From IMG/VR virus record IMGVR_UViG_3300029774_000001: 64,000 bases of DNA. The stretch is one strand, 5' to 3'. Source of the stretch: a virus. Made by a program: the position numbers and the translations under genes. Below, piece by piece: positions 13,459 through 62,324 of the stretch; positions within the stretch are counted from its first letter, which is position 1, and the number at the start of each line of letters is the position of its first letter. The notes under the pieces are model-generated. The model had not been told where the DNA came from, did no database searches, and saw nothing but the letters and a program-made list of their open reading frames with translations.

Positions 13459-15054
13459 ATGGAAGAGTTGTATAAAGACTTAATCAAATATTTGGAAGAT
13501 AATTTTTTGTCTTTCAATGTTTTAGATAATTATATTGTAGAAATTGACGGGCAGACATTTGAATTGTTCGAGCCTTTTAAGTGGGATAAGGACGAAAACG
13601 GGATTTTCTTTGACGATTCGTTCCAGTGGGTAGGAGATAGGACAGAATGTGATAACTATGTTTTCCGGTTTGGCGATGTATGGTATTATCTGAAAAAGGG
13701 AGACGAAAACAAGGTAAAACTTAACCGATTGCAGTATATCGGAAAAGCGAATTTGTTTGACGAAAGTTTGAGGTTTGACACCTATATAGGAGTGCATGGT
13801 AATTTTGAGTTGATGAACGGGATGCACTTTTATTCCGACTGGGTGGAAAAGGCGAAATTCATGGGGATAAGGGCGCTTGGCATATGCGAAAAGAATACGC
13901 TTGCATCAGCGTTCAAGTTTCAAAATGCGTGTCTAAAAAGCGACATAAGACCTATATTCGGTATGGAAGTTACCGTATATAATGAACAGAAGGACGTTAG
14001 ATATACGGTAAAACTGATAGTCAAGAATAAGGAGGGGTGGAATAACCTATTGAAAATAAACAAAATTCTGAATGTTGACGAAAAAGGTTTTATCACGGAA
14101 AAGGAATTGCAGGAAATGAAAGACGGATGTTTTCTACTACTTGACCCGAAAACATGTACGTTTGAAAATCTCCCTATATTGTCAAGAAAATGGAATGACA
14201 CTTATTACCAGCTTGATACCGTGGAATACAAGAAGAATGACCGGGATAAAAAATATCTTGACAATCTGAAAAAGTTCGTGGGTGTGTATAAGCCCGTGGC
14301 GGTATGTGACGCTTGGTACCTGGAAAGACGGTGCGCCCCTATAAGAGAAAAGCTTAACAGATTGGCAAAGGTAGTGAATTATGAGAGTGACAACCAGTAC
14401 ATGAAGAACTATCAAGAGTATTACGAAGAACTGTCAAAACTGATATTGGACGAAGACAAGTTTTTCGGACTGTTTGAAGAAGCTTTGGTAAATCTTAATT
14501 ACATATCGGTAAATTGTAATTATTTGCTGGAGACACAAGTACGGCATGCACCCCAATATGTAATGACAGAAGAGGAGAAAAAGAAATATTCGTCCAATAC
14601 AGAAATGTTTGAATCGCTTGTATTTGACGGACTGGCAGAACATCCGGAAATACTGGATAGATACAGTGAAGAAGAACTGACGGAAAGACTGAACACGGAA
14701 ATATCCATCATAGAAGAAGGCGATGTAGTGGACTACTTTCTGATGCTGAGGGACATTATCAGATGGGGAAGGGATAATAACATTTTGGTCGGACTGGGGA
14801 GAGGCTCCTCCGCTGGCTCTTTGGTGTCCTATCTTCTTGGTATTGTTAATGTAAACCCGTTGGAATACGAACTCCTATTCAGTCGATTTTTGACAAAGGG
14901 TCGTTTAATTCGGCATGAAGAGGAAGAAGTGGTAATGATAAACGGAGAAAAAGAAATATCCGGAAATGCTTTTATAAAGATTATCAGAAATGACGAGGAA
15001 ATGATAATCAGAGCGAAAGAGCTAAAAGAAGGTGACGAACTGATAAACGAATAG
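13459..15054 (+). CDS. dnaE: DNA polymerase III alpha (DnaE) N-terminal fragment: PHP domain to start of palm
   Basis: PHP-region motif 'ALGICEKNTLASAFKFQNACLKSDIRPIFGMEVTV'. '...GRGSSAGSLVSYLLGIVNVNPLEYELLFSRFLTKGR' is colinear with bacterial DnaE up to the residue before the SMPDIDxDF motif, followed by a 49-aa non-DnaE tail. Confidence 0.8.
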   Translation: MEELYKDLIKYLEDNFLSFNVLDNYIVEIDGQTFELFEPFKWDKDENGIFFDDSFQWVGDRTECDNYVFRFGDVWYYLKKGDENKVKLNRLQYIGKANLFDESLRFDTYIGVHGNFELMNGMHFYSDWVEKAKFMGIRALGICEKNTLASAFKFQNACLKSDIRPIFGMEVTVYNEQKDVRYTVKLIVKNKEGWNNLLKINKILNVDEKGFITEKELQEMKDGCFLLLDPKTCTFENLPILSRKWNDTYYQLDTVEYKKNDRDKKYLDNLKKFVGVYKPVAVCDAWYLERRCAPIREKLNRLAKVVNYESDNQYMKNYQEYYEELSKLILDEDKFFGLFEEALVNLNYISVNCNYLLETQVRHAPQYVMTEEEKKKYSSNTEMFESLVFDGLAEHPEILDRYSEEELTERLNTEISIIEEGDVVDYFLMLRDIIRWGRDNNILVGLGRGSSAGSLVSYLLGIVNVNPLEYELLFSRFLTKGRLIRHEEEEVVMINGEKEISGNAFIKIIRNDEEMIIRAKELKEGDELINE

Positions 15055-15058
15055 TTGT

Positions 15059-17134
15059 ATGATAGTAAAAAATATTGAAATAAAACGTCGGGCAAAGACC
15101 GTATTAGGGTCAATGCCAGATATAGATACCGACTTCCCAGGCAGAAGACGAGACGAAATAAAAGCTTACATGGAAGAACGGTTCGGTAAGGAGCAGGTTT
15201 GTTCGCTTGGCACCTATACTACTCTCCAGCTAAAAGAGGCAATATCGGACATGGCGCGTGCAGACGGCATACCAGTACAGTTATACAGATGGTTTACCGC
15301 TTGTATCGGAGATGACAAGGAAAAGACGATAGAGGAGTTTTTTAAGACTGTATGCGGAAAGGAAGACCTAAAGAAGTTCGTGAAGGAACATACAGAAACG
15401 TTCAACGACATGTTGGTAGTTCTTGGTTCACCTAAAAGCCAGTCAGTGCATGCGTGTGGAACCGTAGTGTTGCCAGATGGAAAAACATCCTACGAATGGA
15501 TGCCCGTACATACACAAAAAGGACTTGTAGTTACGGACTGGGAAGGTTCGGAAGTGGAAGAGGCAGGCTTCCTAAAGGAAGATGTTTTGGGTATCATACA
15601 GTTGGATAAGTTCGAGGAAATGTTACGCTTGATAAAGGAGAACCACGGAATAGATATTGACATATACAGCTTGCCTTTGGACGATAAGCAGGTATTCGAG
15701 TATGCAGGTAAAGGATGGCTGGGAGATGTTTTTCAGCTTGGTTCAGCAGGATTATCCGGATATTGCGTAAAAATGAAACCGGAAAACATAAACGAACTGT
15801 CTGCATGTGTGGCTCTCTACAGACCTGGACCTATGGAAAACAATTTCCACAACGAATATATTTTGCGGAAGAACGGGGAAAAGGACTGGACAGAAGAAAT
15901 GCCTATAGGCGGTGAAGAAGTGGTGAAGAAAGATTTTGGACTACTTGTCTATCAAGAAAGTATAATGTTATTAGCCCAAAAACTTGCCGGATTTGATTCT
16001 GAAACAACAGACCTTTTGCGTAAATGTTTGGGGAAGAAGGATTTAAAGAAGATAAAACTTTATAAAGACAAGTTTATTACTAATTATGCAAAAAATTTTG
16101 CTTCTAAGGGTGTCACAAAGGAATACGCGGAAAATCTTTGGAACCAAATGGAAGAGTTTGCAAAATATTCGTTCAACAAATCTCATTCCGTATGCTATGG
16201 TATGACCGCTTATATATGCCTATGGCTTAAGGTACATTATCCTATTGAGTATTGGAGTGCTACATTCTCGTTTGCGAAAGATGAAAAGATACCTTATTAT
16301 GTAAACGAAATACAGCAGTCCGGTGAGATAAAGATACATCCAGTAGATATCAACAAGTCAGATATAAACATTGTGTCCGATTATCGTACAAACAGTATGT
16401 ATTGGGCATTCAACGCAGTAAAACAATGTGGGGAAAGAGCACAGGAACATATATCGGAGGAGAAAAAGAAGAACGGGCCTTTTTTCTCTTTGGAGGAATT
16501 TATAGACAGATGTGTAATTAAAGGCAGTCCGGTAAATAAATCTGTCATTGAGAATTTGATATTTGCAGGAGCGTTCGACGAATTGGAGAATATCCAGGAA
16601 CCTAAAGACCGTTTGGCGCTTATTGAGATGTACCGCGAGAACAAAAGGGTTAAGATATTGGAGGATAAGGATTTACTTACCAATATTATGAAAGTCCGCA
16701 AAGAACGCAATAATTGGTGGTGGCTGTTGCAGCAAAAAAGAACGTCCGGTTTTGCATTTTTTGATTATTACGATTTGGTAAATGAATATCATATGCCTAA
16801 ATTAGACGACGAAACGGAATTCCAGGATGTGTCGCAGATAAAATTTTGGGACATTAATTCAAAGAAAACCCGTCGTGCCGTGATAGGCGGTTATGTGATT
16901 GAGATAATAGAGAGGAAAAGCAAGAAGGGCATATTTGCCACTATAGTATTGGAAAGTAATTATGAGTTTATAAATGTAACTATTTTCCCAGAGTTGTTTG
17001 AAGAATACGGAGAGTTTTTAAGGGGTAGTAAAAAGAACATTTTGTTGGTTAACGGTGTGATTGTGTGGGATAAGTTCAGAGGAGAATATATTTTGCAGGC
17101 GAATGTTAATTCATTGTTTACAGTATTGACGTAA
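15059..17134 (+). CDS. dnaE: DNA polymerase III alpha (DnaE) C-terminal fragment: catalytic palm, fingers, HhH, OB
   Basis: After 16-18 extra residues come 'SMPDIDTDF', then 'ALYRPGPM' and 'FAKYSFNKSHSVCYG'. It is in a different frame from the N-fragment, with only 4 nt between the ORFs. Confidence 0.8.
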   Translation: MIVKNIEIKRRAKTVLGSMPDIDTDFPGRRRDEIKAYMEERFGKEQVCSLGTYTTLQLKEAISDMARADGIPVQLYRWFTACIGDDKEKTIEEFFKTVCGKEDLKKFVKEHTETFNDMLVVLGSPKSQSVHACGTVVLPDGKTSYEWMPVHTQKGLVVTDWEGSEVEEAGFLKEDVLGIIQLDKFEEMLRLIKENHGIDIDIYSLPLDDKQVFEYAGKGWLGDVFQLGSAGLSGYCVKMKPENINELSACVALYRPGPMENNFHNEYILRKNGEKDWTEEMPIGGEEVVKKDFGLLVYQESIMLLAQKLAGFDSETTDLLRKCLGKKDLKKIKLYKDKFITNYAKNFASKGVTKEYAENLWNQMEEFAKYSFNKSHSVCYGMTAYICLWLKVHYPIEYWSATFSFAKDEKIPYYVNEIQQSGEIKIHPVDINKSDINIVSDYRTNSMYWAFNAVKQCGERAQEHISEEKKKNGPFFSLEEFIDRCVIKGSPVNKSVIENLIFAGAFDELENIQEPKDRLALIEMYRENKRVKILEDKDLLTNIMKVRKERNNWWWLLQQKRTSGFAFFDYYDLVNEYHMPKLDDETEFQDVSQIKFWDINSKKTRRAVIGGYVIEIIERKSKKGIFATIVLESNYEFINVTIFPELFEEYGEFLRGSKKNILLVNGVIVWDKFRGEYILQANVNSLFTVLT

Positions 17135-49980: not shown

Positions 49981-50553
49981 ATGAGACTATACAGATTTTT
50001 GGACGAAGACAAGAATATTGATGTGACATTGGTAACGGACGGAAGTTGCGACCAGAAGAAAGTATTCATTACCGAATCACCGCGCGGAATTACCCCTAAA
50101 GGAAACGTGACGGACCCGGAAGGCGGTTCAGAGCTTTTGAAGCTTGGTTTCAAATGGAATGTAGGTGAAGCCGTGATGCACGAGGAACTTGTAGCATTTG
50201 CAGAAGAAAAGGGTTTGGAATTAATTATCGACCCCCAGGGATTGAATGAAATCGTTGCGGTAACGGCAGAATGGAACGATGCAGATGCGTGTGTAATCAC
50301 CATTAAAACAAGTGTTCCGGCAAAGAAGGATGTCGACATTTATTTCCCTAATAGCGTGAATCTGAATGAGAGCGCAGAAAGATTCGGTGTAATCAGAGGA
50401 GACCGCAAAACCCTCTCTACAAAAGTTATGTCCGGTAAACCTATGGCGTTCACGTTGACTGACCTTGGTCTGGATGCAAAGGAGGATTTGAATGTAGTTG
50501 TAATGACCGACAATAATACGTGGCGTGAAGAACTTGTGGCACAAAACGCATAA
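49981..50553 (+). CDS. hypothetical protein, paralogous to the N-terminus of the next gene
   Basis: 'MRLYRFLDEDKNIDVTLVTDGSCDQKKVFITESPRG' compares with 'MLRLLFTTEDNVHQMTVVTDGIDGQMKVFVTESLYG' in the next ORF. Confidence 0.55.
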   Translation: MRLYRFLDEDKNIDVTLVTDGSCDQKKVFITESPRGITPKGNVTDPEGGSELLKLGFKWNVGEAVMHEELVAFAEEKGLELIIDPQGLNEIVAVTAEWNDADACVITIKTSVPAKKDVDIYFPNSVNLNESAERFGVIRGDRKTLSTKVMSGKPMAFTLTDLGLDAKEDLNVVVMTDNNTWREELVAQNA

Positions 50554-50557
50554 GGAT

Positions 50558-52060
50558 ATGTTACGGTTATTGTTTACAACAGAGGACAATGTTCACCAAA
50601 TGACCGTCGTAACCGACGGAATCGACGGTCAGATGAAGGTTTTCGTTACAGAAAGCCTCTATGGTGACGTGGAATATTATAAGGGGCTGGGTATCGTGAT
50701 TGAACCCGGACACACCTATAATATCGGACAGTTCAAGGAATGGGCGTTTAAGGCGCTTGTTAAGCTTATCTCATATCCGGAAGGATTCGGAGAAGAAGGC
50801 GCGGTATTGTCGGACGTGCAGGAAGTTGTGGAATACGTATTGGAGACTAAAGAACCTACACTCAATTTCCCTGCAAAGGGAGGTGATGATATGTGCGTAG
50901 TGACGTCTTCAAAGCAGACTTTCAAGAATGGACAACCAGTAGGACATCCGGAAGGCGTACCAGTGGAATTCTCAATATCTGGGGCAGGATTCAAGGTTGA
51001 CGGTGGAGGACAAGTAACGGTTGACGAGAACCCCAACAACACGACAAGAAAAGCGGTAGTGACGGTTAAACAGAATGAAAGCGGAAAGACATTGCAGATT
51101 ACATGCAACCAGGCTGCATCTACTGTAACCTACGAATATGCGCTTACAGTAGACCCGACAGCGGTAACGTTCGACGGTGCAGGAGGTGAAAAGCTGGTTA
51201 CCGTGACTTCTACAAGAACAAAAGTTCTGAACGGGGTAAAACAGCAGGCAGAAAGCTATCCTACGGACATAGAGCTTGCAGGTGAGGGATTCAGCTATGA
51301 AGTGAGCGGAAACAACTACAATCTGAAAGCCGAGGAGAATACCGGGACCTCACAGAGAACAGGAAAGGCAACCATTTCACAGGAAGGCGGAAAGACCGTA
51401 CAGATGAACTTGACACAGAATGCGGCTACGGTGACGTATGACTATGCACTTACAGCCAACTCACAGACCATACAGTTTGTAGCGCTTGGAGAAACGAAGA
51501 GTTTACAAGTTGTTTCAACAAGACAGAAAAAAGTTAACGGTAAACCGTCTGGTGATGTCGAGAAGGTAGATACGACTGCACAAATTACCGGAACCGGATT
51601 TAGCGAGACTTCATCAGAAACCACCAATGGAGAGAATTATAGCATAGTGGCAGCAGAGAACAAGGCAGAAACAGCTAATAACGGTTCTATTACCATTACA
51701 CAGACTGGAAGTAACAAGACGGTAAAGGTTACGTTAACACAGCTTGCAGCGACAGTTACCTATGAATATACATTGACTACAGACCCGACAACACTTTCAT
51801 TTGCAGCAGCAGGAGAAACAAAGATATTCGGTGTTTCAAGCAAGAAGCAGAAGAAAGTGAATGGGAAGAATGACGGTTCACCTATGACGGTTGACTACAC
51901 TACTGTAGTGAGTGGTACGGGATTTACCAAGGGTTCTACTGAATATTCTGTAGTGGCGGATGCAAATACTGGCGCACAGCGTACCGGAACGGCAGTTGTT
52001 ACGGCAGTAGAAGGAGGAAAGAAAGCGACGGTAAACCTTACACAATTGGCTGGAGAATAA
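50558..52060 (+). CDS. virion decoration/adhesion-type protein with four tandem Ig-like (BACON/Big-like) repeats
   Basis: Track ORF 50525..52060 with ATG 50558 preferred. Four repeats of about 100-108 aa each end in 'v-x-v-x-L-T-Q-x-A-A' and start 'TVTY(E/D)YaLT'. Confidence 0.6.
   Translation: MLRLLFTTEDNVHQMTVVTDGIDGQMKVFVTESLYGDVEYYKGLGIVIEPGHTYNIGQFKEWAFKALVKLISYPEGFGEEGAVLSDVQEVVEYVLETKEPTLNFPAKGGDDMCVVTSSKQTFKNGQPVGHPEGVPVEFSISGAGFKVDGGGQVTVDENPNNTTRKAVVTVKQNESGKTLQITCNQAASTVTYEYALTVDPTAVTFDGAGGEKLVTVTSTRTKVLNGVKQQAESYPTDIELAGEGFSYEVSGNNYNLKAEENTGTSQRTGKATISQEGGKTVQMNLTQNAATVTYDYALTANSQTIQFVALGETKSLQVVSTRQKKVNGKPSGDVEKVDTTAQITGTGFSETSSETTNGENYSIVAAENKAETANNGSITITQTGSNKTVKVTLTQLAATVTYEYTLTTDPTTLSFAAAGETKIFGVSSKKQKKVNGKNDGSPMTVDYTTVVSGTGFTKGSTEYSVVADANTGAQRTGTAVVTAVEGGKKATVNLTQLAGE
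50855..52057 (+). repeat. four tandem coding repeats (~300-325 nt each)
   Basis: Repeat boundaries are near 50855, 51119, 51427 and 51751. Recurring peptide blocks are TVTYEYALT, SxRxKKVNGK and LTQxAA. Confidence 0.7.
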
Positions 52061-52072
52061 AAATTGTTTACA

Positions 52073-55000
52073 ATGGGAAAGAGAAAAGGAAAGATAATAC
52101 AAAAAGCGGAAAAGCCGGATTTGGTTGCAAGTCTTTCGAGTTTGTCCATTGAAGAGATAGACATGCTGCAAAAGGCTGCACCTATGGCATTCCAAAGCAA
52201 ATTGCAGGCTGCGTTAAACTCAAACGATGCAGGGGAGATAATGAAGGCTAATTTGTATCTGGGAGAAATCAATAGACAGCCTACAAAAATTCAGTCTGTT
52301 TTCTTTGACCCTAACGACATATCTGGTAACGGAAGAGGATTCAAGGATTCTAAAGGGGTTCTGTCCTTTTCCGTATTGCGCCGGATGGGGGACATTCATA
52401 TAGTGAAAAGTATCGTGTCTACACGCGTGGAGCAGATAATGAACTTTATGGACTTTTCGGAAGACGAGCAGAAGGAGGGTTTCACAATCAGAAAGAAGAA
52501 GAGCCTTTTTTCTACCGGGGATGAGAAATTGACAAACGAGGACAAGAAAAAGATTTCAAAGATAGTTGATTTCCTGGAAAAGGGAGGATGGACGGACAAA
52601 TGGGACAATGTGGACAGTTTGCAGGAATTTGTAAGTAAAATAATGTCGGATAGTCTTACATTAGACCAGTTGGCCTTTGAAATGGTCCGCAACAGAATGT
52701 GGGAATTGCAGAAGTTCCGCGCTGTGGATGCTTCTCTGATACGTTTTCTTGACAGCGTAGACCCCAGACAAAGGGAAGGTTTCGAGCAGTACAGATTCAA
52801 GGGGCATTTGCCGCGTTACTGCATGGTGTGGGATGAAATGATTCTTCATAACCCTATAACGAAGGAACCGATATTGTATTACCCATGGGAGCTTGGATTC
52901 GGTATCAGAAACAAGACATCTGATGTAAGAAGAAACGGGTATGGAGTATCGGAATTGGAAACGTTGGTGAATATCATAACCTGGATATTATGGGGCTTTT
53001 CTTATAATGCGAATTTCTTTTGCGTTTCACCGGAAACACTCGTTACGACGAATAAGGGTTTAAGAAGAATAAAGGATTTGGTAGGTACAGAATTTGAAGT
53101 TTTTGACGGTGTGGAATACTGTAAGGCATCCGCATATAAGACAAGAATAGATGATTTGTACGAAACAAGACTGTATAACGGCTTAAAGATAAGAACAAGC
53201 CGCGAACACAGATTCTTGACTATAACGGATAAAGATAAATCTCCTAAATGGAAAGAACAAAAGGATTTGACTACGGATGATTATTGTTTAGTAGATATAA
53301 ATACTTATGGAGATTTTCATGAGGAAGATTATTTCATAGGAAGAGAATATTTTAGAGAATTTACTAACCCAACAAAGGAAGCTGTTCTTAAAAAAGAAAA
53401 AACTTTTACCCCTTCTTTGGAGATGGTGAAAGATAAGTATTTTTGGGAAATGATTGGTTTTGCTTTAGGGGATGGTACCTGGTTGGAACATATACTTGAA
53501 ATTTTCCCACACCATACAAAAGATAAAAAACTTTTTGGTGATTTCTCTAAAGTGTTGGATAAATACGGAATAAATTATCGTATAAAGAAAGGCAATCCTT
53601 CCACACAAAGAAGTGACGGGGAATATGGATATCCGTATATATTCATATATGACACATGCTTTATCGACTGGCTTATAAGCATAGGATTCGGATATACAAG
53701 AGATAAGAAGATACCCGTTTCCGTATTTAACTTGCCGGAAGAGTTGAGATGCGCGTTTTTGAGAGGATTGTTTTCGGCAGACGGACATACTTCTGCAAAT
53801 ATAATGGGATATAAAACTCCTACTATATGTTGTGTGAATAATGATTTGAGGCAAGATATATTACAATTATTATTAAGCGTTGGGGTTGCTGCGAGAGAGT
53901 GCAATAGAAGTAAAAGCAGATATAATGACCCAGTAACACTTGTTATTCAAGATGTAATGTCTTTTGTTGATAAAATAGGTTATTTGCAAGACTATAAAAA
54001 TGAAGGTATATCAAGAGGAGAAAGGACAAAGGGCAAATGGGATTTGGTACCTAATTCTTTGGCTTTGGATATACTGGAAAACAACAGGGGAGGTGACATA
54101 TCTTTCTCGAAGCATCATGTGAAAAAAGGTGGAAGGATAAGCAGAGGTAAGCTTATAAGGGTTCTGACAGAGGCGGGATGTAGCGTGCCGGAAATATTGA
54201 ATTATCATTTCTATAAGGTAATGGACAATTCCAGACTTGTAAAGGAGAAGGAACAACTTTATGATATAGAGGTATTCAATGACAAGCATATATTTCTTGC
54301 CAATTATACGGCAGTCCATAACTGCCAGGGTTCACAGCCTAAAGGGTTTATTAACATAAAGAACCCTAATATATCAAACAGTACATTGCAGGAGTTTAGG
54401 CAGGCATGGACGCAAACGATGGCGGGGGTTAGCAACAGTCACCGCACACCCGTTATAAACGGTATAGATTTGGAATGGGTTGATTTACAGAAACTTAGCA
54501 ATCGTGATATGGAATTCAACGAGTGGATAAAATTCCTTATCATAATGACATGTTCCGTATACCGTATAGACCCATCCGAACTTGGATTTAATTTCAAGGA
54601 AAGTCAGCAGATATTCGGACAGGACGGACAGCGCGAAAGATTGAAGCACAGCCGGGAAAAAGGATTGAAGCCTCTATTGATATTCTTGCAGGGTGTCATT
54701 ACAAAGTACATTGTGAGCGAGTTGGACGAAAACTACGAGTTTGCATTTACCGGAATAGAGGTGGAAGACGAAGAAGCACAGGTAAAACTGGATTCTGAAA
54801 AACTGAGTAGCGGCATGGTTGCCATGCAGGATATATTCAAGAAGTATAACGGAAGGGATTTTGACCCGGAAAAGGACATCATTCTTAACCAGGTGTACCA
54901 GGGGATGAAACAGGCAGAAGAACAGAATAAAATGTTCGGAGCTTCACAGCCTGGACAGCAGCCGGAAGGTGTACCGGAAGACGAGGAAGACCCGTTCGCA

Positions 55001-55075
55001 CAATACAAATCGTTTAACGATAATCCTATAATGAAACCAGCAGTTGACTATTATTTAAAAAATCTTTACAAATAA
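52073..55075 (+). CDS. portal protein (tentative) interrupted by an intein
   Basis: 1000 aa from ATG 52073 (the track start at 52064 is TTG), or about 566 aa without the intein. It is the first large gene of a portal ... protease, scaffold, capsid series. The portal assignment rests on size and synteny only. Confidence 0.6.
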   Translation: MGKRKGKIIQKAEKPDLVASLSSLSIEEIDMLQKAAPMAFQSKLQAALNSNDAGEIMKANLYLGEINRQPTKIQSVFFDPNDISGNGRGFKDSKGVLSFSVLRRMGDIHIVKSIVSTRVEQIMNFMDFSEDEQKEGFTIRKKKSLFSTGDEKLTNEDKKKISKIVDFLEKGGWTDKWDNVDSLQEFVSKIMSDSLTLDQLAFEMVRNRMWELQKFRAVDASLIRFLDSVDPRQREGFEQYRFKGHLPRYCMVWDEMILHNPITKEPILYYPWELGFGIRNKTSDVRRNGYGVSELETLVNIITWILWGFSYNANFFCVSPETLVTTNKGLRRIKDLVGTEFEVFDGVEYCKASAYKTRIDDLYETRLYNGLKIRTSREHRFLTITDKDKSPKWKEQKDLTTDDYCLVDINTYGDFHEEDYFIGREYFREFTNPTKEAVLKKEKTFTPSLEMVKDKYFWEMIGFALGDGTWLEHILEIFPHHTKDKKLFGDFSKVLDKYGINYRIKKGNPSTQRSDGEYGYPYIFIYDTCFIDWLISIGFGYTRDKKIPVSVFNLPEELRCAFLRGLFSADGHTSANIMGYKTPTICCVNNDLRQDILQLLLSVGVAARECNRSKSRYNDPVTLVIQDVMSFVDKIGYLQDYKNEGISRGERTKGKWDLVPNSLALDILENNRGGDISFSKHHVKKGGRISRGKLIRVLTEAGCSVPEILNYHFYKVMDNSRLVKEKEQLYDIEVFNDKHIFLANYTAVHNCQGSQPKGFINIKNPNISNSTLQEFRQAWTQTMAGVSNSHRTPVINGIDLEWVDLQKLSNRDMEFNEWIKFLIIMTCSVYRIDPSELGFNFKESQQIFGQDGQRERLKHSREKGLKPLLIFLQGVITKYIVSELDENYEFAFTGIEVEDEEAQVKLDSEKLSSGMVAMQDIFKKYNGRDFDPEKDIILNQVYQGMKQAEEQNKMFGASQPGQQPEGVPEDEEDPFAQYKSFNDNPIMKPAVDYYLKNLYK
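53021..54322 (+). mobile_element. intein with LAGLIDADG homing-endonuclease domain (434 codons)
   Basis: N-junction 'NANFF|CVSPETLVTT' and C-junction 'ANYTAVHN|CQGSQ'. Block B 'TSREHRFL'. LAGLIDADG blocks 'WEMIGFALGDGTW' and 'AFLRGLFSADGHT'. In frame with the host ORF. Confidence 0.85.
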
Positions 55076-55081
55076 GGAATT

Positions 55082-56011
55082 ATGGAAAGTTTCGATGATT
55101 TAAAGTTAGAAAGATATATAAACAAGGCTCTTTTGGAAAAGAGTTTGGGAAGACCAGAAATGTATGACGGGCTTCTGGAGATTGCGAAGGCACAACAAGG
55201 CGTATATGTGAACAACGCGGTAAACCGGAAGCTTGGCATTGTTGGGCTGCCATACAAGAAAAGAAAGGCTACGGAGGAAGAGAAAGCCGATTTAACCAAG
55301 ACAACAGAAGACCTTTATAAGGAAGGTAGTGCGTGGAAACGAGACAGACAGATTAAAGTACATAACAAAGTGAAGTCTGAATATCGGAAGAAAATGCTAT
55401 TTGAGACAAAACCGCGTGCTTACTTAATGCTTGGCGGTGGTGGTTCGGGCAAAGGGTATTATCTTAAGAAGATGAAGGAGAAAGACCCTTCTATTGATAA
55501 ACTTCCAGTTATTGATGTGGACGATATGCGTGACATGATACCGGATTATGAAAGGGTGAAGGGAATAGACCCAAAGAAAGCTTCATCCTATGTGCATGAG
55601 GAAGTATCGGATATAGGTAAAGCGATAGACAAGGAATATATAAAATCTAAATCTTCTTTTGTAAAAGATGCTGTATTTGGAAACCCGGCAAAACTTGAAA
55701 AATTGGTTGATGAATTGAAGGCACAAGGTTACGATGTCCATTTGGTAGGCGTGGCAACCGATTTCAGTACGGTTTTGGATAGAATACAGAAACGTTTTGA
55801 GAGAACGAAACGGTATGTTCCTACAGAAGTGGCGAAAAAAGGACATAAAGGAGCGTCCGAATCTTTCAAGAAAGTTATCGAAACTCCGTTGAAAGATAAA
55901 TTCAAGTCCGTTAAATTGTATGACGGAAATTCCGATAATGGAGTGATTTATGATAACAAAGTGTTAAATCAAAAAGAACTTGATAGGTTTCTTAAAAAAA
56001 TAGACTTATAA
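55082..56011 (+). CDS. zeta-toxin-like P-loop kinase with N-terminal 'NRKLGIVG' motif
   Basis: Walker A 'LMLGGGGSGKGYYL', 'PVIDVDDMRDMIPDY', 'GYDVHLVGVATDFSTVLDRIQKRFERTKRYVP'. The N-terminal 'GVYVNNAVNRKLGIVGLPY' is a motif I associate with phage polyvalent/MuF-linked proteins. Confidence 0.6.
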   Translation: MESFDDLKLERYINKALLEKSLGRPEMYDGLLEIAKAQQGVYVNNAVNRKLGIVGLPYKKRKATEEEKADLTKTTEDLYKEGSAWKRDRQIKVHNKVKSEYRKKMLFETKPRAYLMLGGGGSGKGYYLKKMKEKDPSIDKLPVIDVDDMRDMIPDYERVKGIDPKKASSYVHEEVSDIGKAIDKEYIKSKSSFVKDAVFGNPAKLEKLVDELKAQGYDVHLVGVATDFSTVLDRIQKRFERTKRYVPTEVAKKGHKGASESFKKVIETPLKDKFKSVKLYDGNSDNGVIYDNKVLNQKELDRFLKKIDL

Positions 56012-56073: not shown

Positions 56074-56310
56074 ATGGCAAAGAAAAAGTACGGAATTGAT
56101 ATGACGGCTGACGAATGGTTTGAGATTGAAGAACGTGGAATGGGCGAAGGTTGGACGATGGAAGAAGTTGCAGCTTTAGGTCCAGAAGGTAGAGAGTTTC
56201 ATAGAAGCGCTCCATATAATCCTTACTTCCCGAAACCAGATATGTCTATTTTTAACGAAGACCTTTATGATGGTTATAAGATAAAGAAGAATGTCGGAAA
56301 AGAAAGTTGA
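56074..56310 (+). CDS. hypothetical protein
   Basis: 78-aa ORF. Confidence 0.55.
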   Translation: MAKKKYGIDMTADEWFEIEERGMGEGWTMEEVAALGPEGREFHRSAPYNPYFPKPDMSIFNEDLYDGYKIKKNVGKES

Positions 56311-56491
56311 TGGTATAAGAACCCCTTTGGTATCGCGTCTTATTGGAGTGAAAAGACACGTGAAAGACCCTATCAGATATCCGAAAATACAATGCGGTTA
56401 TGAAGGTCTTGCACAGACCATGTTTGCCACACAGTCGGACGCGATGATAAAGGAGCTTGTAAAGGAAATGATAAAATCGGTTGAAAGATGA
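56291..56491 (+). CDS. hypothetical protein
   Basis: 66-aa ORF overlapping both neighbours. Confidence 0.45.
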   Translation: MSEKKVDGIRTPLVSRLIGVKRHVKDPIRYPKIQCGYEGLAQTMFATQSDAMIKELVKEMIKSVER

Positions 56492-57441
56492 TATTCACAC
56501 CGGAAGAGATACAAAAACTATATGATATAATAGACTACCGTCTTGCAAGAATTGTAGCCGATGTAATGGGGGATGAACTGTTGACACCGGAAGACAAGTC
56601 TTTGTTAAGACGGTATGGCTATAAATGGAGAAGGGAGATAGAAAAGTTACCACCCTATTTTCAATCCTATCTGTTTGGAAGGTTGAGTGCACAACTGACG
56701 CCTTCCCAATTGTCTACACTCAATTTTGACGATTTTACCAAGTATATAGACCGTCATCAGTGGGCAGCACTTACACCGTTGGAACAGGAAGTGTATTATG
56801 CAGCAGCAACACGTACATACTCCTATATAAAGACGATGGGAGAACGGTCCAAAACGATAATGTCTAATGCCGTATCGGAAGAAGAAGTAAAAGTTCTTGT
56901 GGAACAGCAAAGACAATTGGAGCTTGGAACGATAAAGAAGGAAATGATAGAAGGCGCTCTGAAAAAGAAGTCCGTGCAGAACATTGTCAGTAATATAGGG
57001 CATTCCCTGGAAGACTGGAACCGTGATTGGGGGCGTATAGTGGAAACCGAAATGCAGAACATATATCAAACTGGGGTAGCCCAGCAGATAATGAAGGAAC
57101 AGGGAGCGGACGCGCTTGTATATAAAGAGGTATTCAGTGGAGCGTGCCAGCACTGTATAAAGTTTTACACCACGGCAGGGATAGGAAGTAAACCGAGGAT
57201 ATTCAAGCTTATAGACCTTATAAACAACGGGGACAATATAGGGAAGAAAGTTAAAGATTGGAAACCAGTGTTAAATAGTGTTCACCCATTCTGTCGTTGT
57301 GACCTTAAGGAGGTACCTAAAGGTATGGTTTGGAATGACGAGACGCATTCGTTTGAACCGCCTAAAGAACCATACAAGAGACAGGTAGAGAGAAAGAGTA
57401 AAGTAAAAATATATGTTGGAGATAAAAAGTTTGAGGTATGA
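56488..57441 (+). CDS. Mu F / SPP1 gp7-like minor head protein
   Basis: C-terminal 'ACQHCIKFY ... NSVHPFCRCDLKEV' matches the C-x-x-C ... HPxCRC signature of the MuF family. Located in the head module. Confidence 0.7.
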   Translation: MIFTPEEIQKLYDIIDYRLARIVADVMGDELLTPEDKSLLRRYGYKWRREIEKLPPYFQSYLFGRLSAQLTPSQLSTLNFDDFTKYIDRHQWAALTPLEQEVYYAAATRTYSYIKTMGERSKTIMSNAVSEEEVKVLVEQQRQLELGTIKKEMIEGALKKKSVQNIVSNIGHSLEDWNRDWGRIVETEMQNIYQTGVAQQIMKEQGADALVYKEVFSGACQHCIKFYTTAGIGSKPRIFKLIDLINNGDNIGKKVKDWKPVLNSVHPFCRCDLKEVPKGMVWNDETHSFEPPKEPYKRQVERKSKVKIYVGDKKFEV

Positions 57442-61547: not shown

Positions 61548-62324
61548 ATGTTTGAAGTAGATTCAAAATTTAATTTTTTCACAGAAGCAAACTTTGAAAA
61601 ATCAGATTTCAATCCTATGGATTACCCGGTAGGGGATGATAGAAGATACGAAAAAATGATTTTTGAAGGTTTGGCATCCGATTCTTCCATAGATTCGGAG
61701 GATGAATCTATGAATCCCAACGGATTTGTAATAGACCGCTTTTTAAAACACGGTCTTATTAATTTGGACCATTTGCCGTCAAGAAGTCCTATCAATAAAT
61801 CAAGGTTCTGGATAGGACATCCATTAGACGCATATGTAAAGAATAACAAGTTCTACGTGCGTTGCCAGTTATGGAAGAAATCACCGGAAGCAAGAGCGTT
61901 TTATGACAAGGCACTGGAAATGCTTGCAAGCGGTACAGACCGGAAGCCGGGTTTCTCCGTTGAAGGAAGAGCACTTGAAAGAGACAAAAACAATCCTAAA
62001 AAGGTGACAAAAGCGCTCATAACAAACGTAGCAATGACAATGACGCCCGTAAATGCAAATTCGTTTGCCGATATAGTAAAGGGCGTGCAGACAGTAGATT
62101 TCGTAGAGGACAATAAAGAAGAAATTAACAACGGTTCTAATAACGTTCTTGTAGAGCTACAGAAGGACGGATATAATATAAAAATAGACAAATCTTTCAA
62201 CGTTACCATTAACCCTATCATAGTGGAAAGAGACGAAAGATTTCAAGAGCTTTATAATTATTATCTGAACGGTAATGTAGGATTGAACGTTATAAAGGAC
62301 TATTTGAGAACCGTTAATAAATAA
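61548..62324 (+). CDS. prohead protease (T4 gp21-like, tentative)
   Basis: 'HGLINLDHLP' versus T4 gp21 'LGELNHPP', and 'PGFSVEGRAL' versus 'PGVSSRGLG'. It is located immediately before the scaffold and capsid genes. Confidence 0.55.
   Translation: MFEVDSKFNFFTEANFEKSDFNPMDYPVGDDRRYEKMIFEGLASDSSIDSEDESMNPNGFVIDRFLKHGLINLDHLPSRSPINKSRFWIGHPLDAYVKNNKFYVRCQLWKKSPEARAFYDKALEMLASGTDRKPGFSVEGRALERDKNNPKKVTKALITNVAMTMTPVNANSFADIVKGVQTVDFVEDNKEEINNGSNNVLVELQKDGYNIKIDKSFNVTINPIIVERDERFQELYNYYLNGNVGLNVIKDYLRTVNK

Follow-up and report, generated by a model that had tools for sequence, protein, structure and literature searches.

The stretch of viral DNA analysed here, 64,000 nucleotides of IMG/VR record IMGVR_UViG_3300029774_000001 (the window), carries a portal protein gene interrupted by an in-frame insert of 434 codons. 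This insert is very probably a class 1 intein with a double-motif LAGLIDADG homing endonuclease, seated where the stem and the clip of the portal meet, in an abundant uncultured phage of the human gut with a genome of about 106 kb, and we infer that it both splices and homes. It spans residues 317-750 of a 1000-amino acid open reading frame (ORF) and contains no stop codon; the first-pass annotation of the window had read such an insert at 53021-54322 from the translation, and its extent and its position within the ORF at 52073-55075 proved exact. The insert begins with CVSPETLV and ends with ANYTAVHN, preceded by ...ITWILWGFSYNANFF and followed by CQGSQPKG. The gene is organised as follows.

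52073-55075, plus strand: portal precursor gene, a single ORF from ATG to TAA with the intein inside (1000 codons plus TAA).
52073-53020, plus strand: N-extein (residues 1-316 of the portal, comprising wing and first stem helix), with ...SYNANFF at its end; matches phrog_15361 and residues 85-282 of 8q7d.
53021-54322, plus strand: putative class 1 intein, Cys1 to Asn434, 434 codons; recognised by profiles and missing from near-identical alleles.
53021-53059, plus strand: block A with the predicted Cys1 nucleophile (CVSPETLVTTNKG); TIGR01445 intein_Nterm matches from residue 1.
53177-53224, plus strand: block B (NGLKIRTSREHRFLTI), with S60..H63 at the canonical TxxH positions, from the alignment to the DnaB mini-intein 4o1r.
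53423-54010, plus strand: LAGLIDADG homing endonuclease domain, approximately intein residues 135-330; from Pfam LAGLIDADG_3, AlphaFold2 (AF2) and Foldseek.
53444-53482, plus strand: LAGLIDADG motif 1, WEMIGFALGDGTW, intein residues 142-154, putative catalytic Asp151 (GDG); from the translation.
53753-53791, plus strand: LAGLIDADG motif 2, AFLRGLFSADGHT, intein residues 245-257, putative catalytic Asp254 (ADG); aligned to the second motif of PI-PkoII.
54257-54322, plus strand: blocks F and G (LYDIEVFNDKHIFLANYTAVHN) with His433-Asn434; TIGR01443 intein_Cterm.
54323-54325, plus strand: +1 Cys codon TGC, the first C-extein residue; TGC in 48/48 intein-bearing alleles.
54323-55075, plus strand: C-extein (clip, second stem helix, tunnel loop and crown) plus stop; matches Phage_portal, PHROG portal families and residues 283-492 of 8q7d.

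To judge from its sequence, the insert displays every feature of a class 1 intein with a double-motif LAGLIDADG endonuclease. The Cys1 start, the C-terminal His-Asn, the +1 Cys and both LAGLIDADG blocks lie exactly where they had first been placed, the two motifs some 100 residues apart and each with an acidic end residue. Cys1 is invariant in 43 distinct alleles of the intein and in its distant relatives, its codon being TGC or TGT in all 48 copies. The GFALGDGTW stretch of motif 1 is likewise invariant (43/43 alleles), with G150, D151 and G152 shared by the distant relatives as well, and motif 2 is conserved in 42 of the 43. The T-x-x-H block reported by the first-pass annotation needs amending: the essential His is present and invariant, but TSREH reads T-x-x-x-H, and the canonical positions are S60-R-E-H63, which pair with TGNH of 4o1r, Ser replacing the canonical Thr and T59 lying adjacent. 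In the alignment of the intein family T59, S60 and H63 are invariant, as are D415, H423, H433 and N434. The C-terminal junction is H433-N434^C here (^ marks the insertion point throughout), while relatives have HN^S or HN^T. The GC content of the intein is 35.5%, versus 42.3% in the exteins.

Profile searches identify the insert independently of these motifs, with matches above the curated Pfam and NCBIfam thresholds, as expected from the Hint/LAGLIDADG assignment first made by eye. The 434-residue segment matches PF14528 LAGLIDADG_3 in two stretches (E=4.8e-13, 49.6 bits, cutoff 22.5) and PF14890 Intein_splicing (E=7.8e-10, 39.2 bits, cutoff 35.8), the latter scoring slightly below its cutoff, at 34.9 bits, when the full ORF is searched. 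The NCBIfam model TIGR01445 intein_Nterm covers segment residues 1-67, beginning at Cys1 (27.0 bits, cutoff 24.5), and TIGR01443 intein_Cterm covers residues 730-751 of the full ORF, the last of these being the +1 position (16.0 bits, cutoff 15.6). Taken together, the profile matches of the insert are far beyond chance. A search of solved structures with a profile of the family retrieved PI-PkoII (E=8.7e-5) in addition to DnaB and DnaE mini-inteins.

Comparison with intein-less homologues, named beforehand by the first-pass annotation as the way in which its reading could fail, gives a clean gap of 434 residues with breaks in the DNA alignment at both junctions. Removal of the 434 codons leaves a protein of 566 amino acids, and a natural 566-residue allele of the same phage, L001, is identical to it at 564 of 566 residues. 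At the DNA level L001 is 92-96% identical to the window on both flanks and the alignment breaks at 53021 and 54323. More than 120 natural portals of 566 or 567 residues in the protein database are 99-100% identical to the spliced protein over its full length, and we found approximately 30 intein-less loci of the same phage with portal identity above 97%. The intein-less alleles begin at the same MGKR as the portal of the window. One of the two L001 differences is the +1 residue itself, Ser (AGC) instead of Cys (TGC). Intein-less alleles have Ser at this position (AGC, AGT, TCG or TCT), or Lys in four of them, and Cys occurs in 0/31 intein-less loci and 0/120 intein-less proteins. Synonymous differences at -10, -7 and -4 were considered as a co-conversion tract and rejected, since these polymorphisms are common to intein-less alleles; the only intein-specific difference at the junction is the +1 codon.

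The identity of the host gene, which had been called a putative portal, is well supported. The C-extein matches Pfam PF04860 Phage_portal over residues 752-915 (43.1 bits, cutoff 39.1, E=4e-11), PHROG portal families match both exteins (phrog_15361 on the N-extein, E=5e-27), and residues 99-522 of the spliced sequence match the portal of Staphylococcus phage 812 (8q7d, E=8.4e-40). The clip is the part of a portal that protrudes from the capsid. In the phage 812 portal residues 264-285 form a stem segment and 286-342 the clip (PMC12886913 supplement), and Cys317 of the spliced portal pairs with Ser283; the intein therefore lies at the end of the first stem helix, and the clip begins three residues further on. 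An unspliced insert of 50 kDa at this junction should be incompatible with a dodecameric portal. The first-pass annotation had further taken the insertion point as the mark of a critical motif of the portal. When 17 diverse portals are aligned, the insertion indeed falls in a conserved block, YNxxFF^SxGSxPKG, within the top 8% of positions, and this together with the stem/clip location agrees with the proposal; the +1 residue itself does not, being S, K, R or D among different intein-less portals.

The intein is not a peculiarity of one contig. Scans of IMG/VR and of metagenome contigs yielded 47 further full-length intein-bearing loci with 95-100% amino acid identity, on contigs of up to about 108 kb whose metagenome records are labelled human gut; the intein-bearing genomes are near-complete at about 106 kb. 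The exact protein of the window falls in a public cluster of 831 members named only 'hypothetical protein', although such cluster sizes give no estimate of allele frequency, each intein-less allele being stored in a cluster of its own. The ORF is intact in all 48 intein-bearing alleles, with 1000 or 1001 amino acids, Cys1, His-Asn and a TGC-encoded Cys+1; the one-codon length variant lies in the C-extein, and the alleles that carry it are intact. The splicing competence of the intein is thus supported indirectly, by 48 of 48 intact copies in an essential gene and by invariant predicted catalytic residues. As a separate observation, several metagenomic contigs (L032, L034, L037/L098 and L055) end inside the intein, at residues ~82, 165, 260 and 189-286. 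Two such contigs share IMG dataset 3300029099, and the ends may come from assembly breaks caused by mixed alleles in one sample.

Nucleotide diversity is as high in the intein (0.057) as in the exteins (0.052-0.058), which makes the intein a long-standing resident rather than a newcomer. The ratio of nonsynonymous to synonymous changes (dN/dS) is 0.055 over the intein; the two halves of the endonuclease give 0.047 and 0.077 and the splicing ends 0.044 and 0.028, against 0.016 in the N-extein and 0.074 in the C-extein. At a synonymous divergence (pS) of ~0.2 (~0.23) in the intein, both LAGLIDADG motifs are essentially invariant. Purifying selection on the intein is strong, the endonuclease included.

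Presence of the intein requires at least 10 gain or loss steps on a neighbour-joining tree of extein DNA, while shuffled labels never require fewer than 17 and on average require 24.6; presence is therefore neither monophyletic nor random. The fixation index (Fst) between intein-bearing and intein-less alleles is 0.24 in the 150-nucleotide bin that holds the site and 0.18 in the next bin downstream, a peak that owes part of its height to the fixed difference at +1 and to the four alleles with Lys there, and it is approximately zero beyond roughly -150 and +450 nucleotides from the insertion point. Overall, the population data fit the homing of a splicing-competent intein, which would pass from one genomic background to another with co-conversion tracts that are short and biased towards the 3' side. 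The ongoing horizontal exchange claimed in the first-pass annotation is consistent with these data but not proven by them, given that ordinary recombination could give similar patterns.

We envisage the following cycle. The 1000-residue precursor would be translated and Cys1 would form a thioester, following the established chemistry of class 1 inteins; the +1 Cys would attack this thioester, and Asn434 would cyclise with the help of His433, freeing the intein. The product would be a 566-residue portal with Cys317 in place of the Ser of intein-less alleles. On co-infection with an intein-less relative, the freed intein would cut the empty site, for which the putative recognition sequence is approximately ...AATGC(G/A)AA(T/C)TT(C/T)TTT^AGCCAGGGGTCACA... 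Repair from the intein-bearing genome would then copy in the intein and, with it, a short stretch of flanking DNA in which the Cys codon lies.

Several points weigh against this reading. The Fst peak, besides being inflated, could arise together with the scattered presence from frequent homologous recombination alone. The near parity of alleles in IMG/VR, about 35 genomes with the intein and about 30 without, is a count from one database and not a sampled population frequency. The AF2 model of the intein is poor (mean pLDDT, a per-residue confidence score, of 51.8, and below 50 in the Hint parts) because the usable alignment held 4 sequences; its first endonuclease half follows the order alpha-beta-beta-alpha-beta-beta-alpha at pLDDT 70-86, and the second is incomplete. 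In favour of the main reading, Foldseek searches with this weak model returned LAGLIDADG inteins or endonucleases as all of the top 24 PDB matches, at TM-scores of only ~0.3, the best being TliVMA (1e-8), followed by PI-SceI, PhoVMA, PI-PkoII, I-DmoI and I-SceI.

In an alternative scenario the intein would splice without any longer being propagated by its endonuclease; the domain would be kept because it stabilises the splicing fold, while only ordinary recombination and drift shuffle the polymorphism. The equal diversity of intein and host gene, which implies no recent sweep, would agree with this, as would the decay of linkage disequilibrium within a few hundred nucleotides on both sides, as general recombination would produce. 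Furthermore, distances between inteins correlate with those between exteins (Mantel r=0.31, p=0.001), indicating substantial vertical co-inheritance. Nevertheless, the LAGLIDADG motifs keep their acidic residues invariant, and dN/dS in the endonuclease is 0.05-0.08 at pS ~0.2, low values that could also reflect a structural role of the domain in splicing rather than nuclease activity. A useless nuclease is normally lost, leaving a mini-intein, and an insert of 1.3 kb in an essential gene is unlikely to persist at about half frequency without homing. We therefore regard a retired endonuclease as unlikely and favour an intein that still homes.

The intein-less alleles offer additional clues on the target of such an endonuclease. 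The four alleles with Lys at +1 (L077, L078, L081 and L092, hereafter KN alleles) match the rest of the population except in a patch of about 360 nucleotides, from -108 to +252 of the insertion point (nucleotides 840-1200 of the portal gene), which is ~84% identical to every other allele compared and changes GFSYNANFF^SQGSQ to GLTYNGNFF^KNGSQ. No donor of this patch was found among all loci compared, the best match being 84%. Since these alleles have Lys at +1, Ser at this position is not essential to the portal. A further allele, L073, has a private variant of the site, GFEYNALFF^SQ. Amino acid variation within 10 codons on either side of the homing site accounts for 6 of 37 variable positions among intein-less alleles (p=0.002), although this reflects two haplotype events only, versus 0 of 28 among intein-bearing alleles. 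The KN and L073 alleles could, as a lead only, represent targets resistant to the endonuclease, or escape variants. On a bolder reading, the portal locus would be the scene of a long arms race between endonuclease and target, in which homing holds the intein at intermediate frequency, some intein-less alleles escape through a changed recognition site (the KN alleles by an imported patch, L073 by its private variant), and Cys+1 is adaptive for the intein rather than a trace left by hitch-hiking; we put this forward as a speculative scenario that is probably not the correct one.

Cys+1 also lies at the centre of another alternative, namely that splicing takes place only under certain conditions and so serves as a post-translational switch for the maturation of the portal, triggered for example through a Cys1/Cys+1 disulfide, with the change from Ser to Cys as an adaptation. 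Cys+1 is fixed in 48/48 copies, as opposed to Ser (10) or Thr (8) in all 18 other lineages that carry an intein at this site and Ser in intein-less alleles, and it is therefore peculiar to this phage. The stem/clip location would also suit a switch, given that the unspliced insert should block assembly or terminase docking. Yet roughly half of the genomes of this same phage lack the intein, so no regulatory role is required, and the fixation of Cys+1 is accounted for by a founder effect plus co-conversion, because the +1 codon adjoins the junction. A redox trap is, moreover, less likely to matter in the gut, where oxygen is mostly absent, and overall we consider a switch quite improbable. Finally, that the 434 residues form an integral, non-excised portal domain (Hint-like or a BIL-type, bacterial intein-like module) or an assembly artefact is scarcely credible: near-identical portals lacking exactly these residues exclude an integral domain, the class 1 catalytic residues are all conserved, and the insert recurs on the 47 further independent contigs, from many samples and assemblers, as well as in the 831-member public cluster.

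To place the putative homing intein of the window in a broader context we turn to its relatives. An exhaustive HMMER search of 1.84 billion representatives retrieved 914 relatives of the intein, 44 of them at E<=1e-30; an earlier impression that it is 'very rare', from a word-indexed protein search with 3 relatives, was rejected on the basis of this search and of the exact look-up, which show a much larger family. Among the representatives, 18-19 other portal lineages have an allelic intein in the same position, YNxxFF^. The site is free of inteins in portal lineages nearer to the present one (68-74% identity), while a 46%-identical portal bears a 60%-identical intein, and the distribution is therefore sporadic, as is typical of inteins. 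The identities of inteins and exteins across lineages do not separate vertical descent from horizontal transfer.

Related LAGLIDADG inteins also occupy at least 6 other conserved sites of the same SPO1-like/PF04860 portal family (at least 7 in all), including GVxN^S(H/W)K (21 representatives), DLQK^SNRDMEF, QLE^SFRxxW, GYGY^SELE and one site 4 residues upstream of the present one. Portal representatives with related inteins include P0141, P0143, P0153, P0156 and P0168 to P0265. Some portals of uncultured phages have three or four inteins, P0156 being a protein of 2052 amino acids with four HN^+1 junctions. The same intein clade occurs in the AERxxxNxPIQG^S/T motif of family-A DNA polymerases as well. 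SPO1-like/PF04860 portals of uncultured phages are thus an intein hotspot. Just upstream of GVxN^SH, the commonest other intein site of the portal family, the phage studied here has a hypervariable pair of residues (54428-54433, spliced portal residues 352-353), V or Y followed by G, S, Y, Q or N; YQ is found at this pair in 29 of 48 intein-bearing and 3 of 31 intein-less alleles.

A megablast search of the gene against deposited phages gave no match, so that the phage has no cultured or deposited close relative there, and the best portal match is a 57% identical protein (amino acids) on an unverified human faecal contig. A close relative of the portal intein is likewise missing from 50,697 deposited phage records (tblastn), and we found no paper describing it. 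Portal inteins are, in fact, already known from actinobacteriophages: they were described in cluster C1 mycobacteriophages (Kelley et al. 2016, PMC5050341), and a 2025 survey of PhagesDB distinguishes five polyphyletic groups of them (bioRxiv 10.1101/2025.01.02.630785). The present intein adds another case. As in those phages, a LAGLIDADG-bearing intein interrupts the portal gene and occurs sporadically among related phages. In contrast, the portal here is of the PF04860/SPO1-like type and not IPR009279, the host phylum differs, the habitat is the human gut, and no close sequence relationship between the inteins was detected.

In overall architecture, a Hint domain split by a double-motif LAGLIDADG endonuclease, the intein resembles TliVMA (7qss), PI-SceI (1vde, 1lws), PhoVMA (7qst) and PI-PkoII (2cw7). 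Solved VMA and DNA polymerase inteins of this kind come closest to it in structure and in profile searches (Foldseek E=1e-8 to 1e-4), but identity to the archaeal and yeast proteins is 15-17%, the TM-score is ~0.3 with a poor model, and their host proteins are others. The nearest inteins of deposited phages reside in NrdD of Lactococcus 949-group phages and in the terminase of Psychrobacillus phage Perkons and other Herelleviridae (tblastn, PHROG 26446); these share the class and the endonuclease type, but only 20-26% identity, and again interrupt other proteins. The crAss-like phages of the gut carry inteins in core genes, the large terminase subunit TerL and others (Yutin et al. 2021, PMC7886860), and parallel the present case in that the genes affected are core ones for morphogenesis or packaging and the phages are abundant, uncultured members of the human gut virome. 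Their TerL inteins are, however, described as Hint-Hop, while the present one is Hint-LAGLIDADG and lies in the SPO1-like portal of an unrelated phage.

The gene neighbourhood of the portal includes a head maturation protease at 61548-62324 (PHROG 1028, E=3e-34); no terminase was identified in the scanned part of the window. Directly 3' of the portal, 55082-56011 (plus strand) encodes a Zeta_toxin/AAA_33-like P-loop kinase domain, an unusual portal neighbour, and the same product matches a PHROG 'minor head protein' (E=5.6e-15). Immediately 5', 50525-52060 (plus strand) encodes a protein of 511 amino acids made of repeated units (...TVTYEYALT...), for which we found no PHROG match; its counterpart in L001 has a faint match to the BACON domain, which suggests a Bacteroidota-associated phage, and the host is probably a member of Bacteroidota. 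L001 also carries an additional TnpB/OrfB_IS605-family gene (L001 13166-14350), between the homologues of 56291-56491 and 56488-57441 of the window, which lacks it at the corresponding point (about 56489); mobile-element content therefore varies independently of the intein in this phage species. No second intein of the same family is present in the window. At a distance from the portal, a DnaE-type DNA polymerase III alpha is encoded by two adjacent ORFs in different frames, 4 nucleotides apart (13459-15054 and 15059-17134, plus strand). The break falls inside the Pfam NTPase domain, of which the first ORF covers profile positions 14-98 and the second 100-260. The gene could be genuinely split or read through by a programmed frameshift, or the break could come from an error in sequencing.

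The present case leaves the understanding of how inteins work unchanged. What it provides is a well-sampled example of an intein that interrupts a structural gene in an uncultured phage of the human gut, with plus and minus alleles both common in one species, and thus a natural dataset on which to test models of how homing endonucleases persist, how long co-conversion tracts are and how target sites escape. For annotation the consequence is practical, in that ignoring the intein gives a core phage marker gene the wrong length and the wrong domains. At the level of the family, the stem/clip junction and several nearby conserved motifs of SPO1-like portals stand out as repeatedly invaded sites. 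If the arms race between endonuclease and target were true, the homing cycle would be directly measurable in a wild phage population across hundreds of public genomes.

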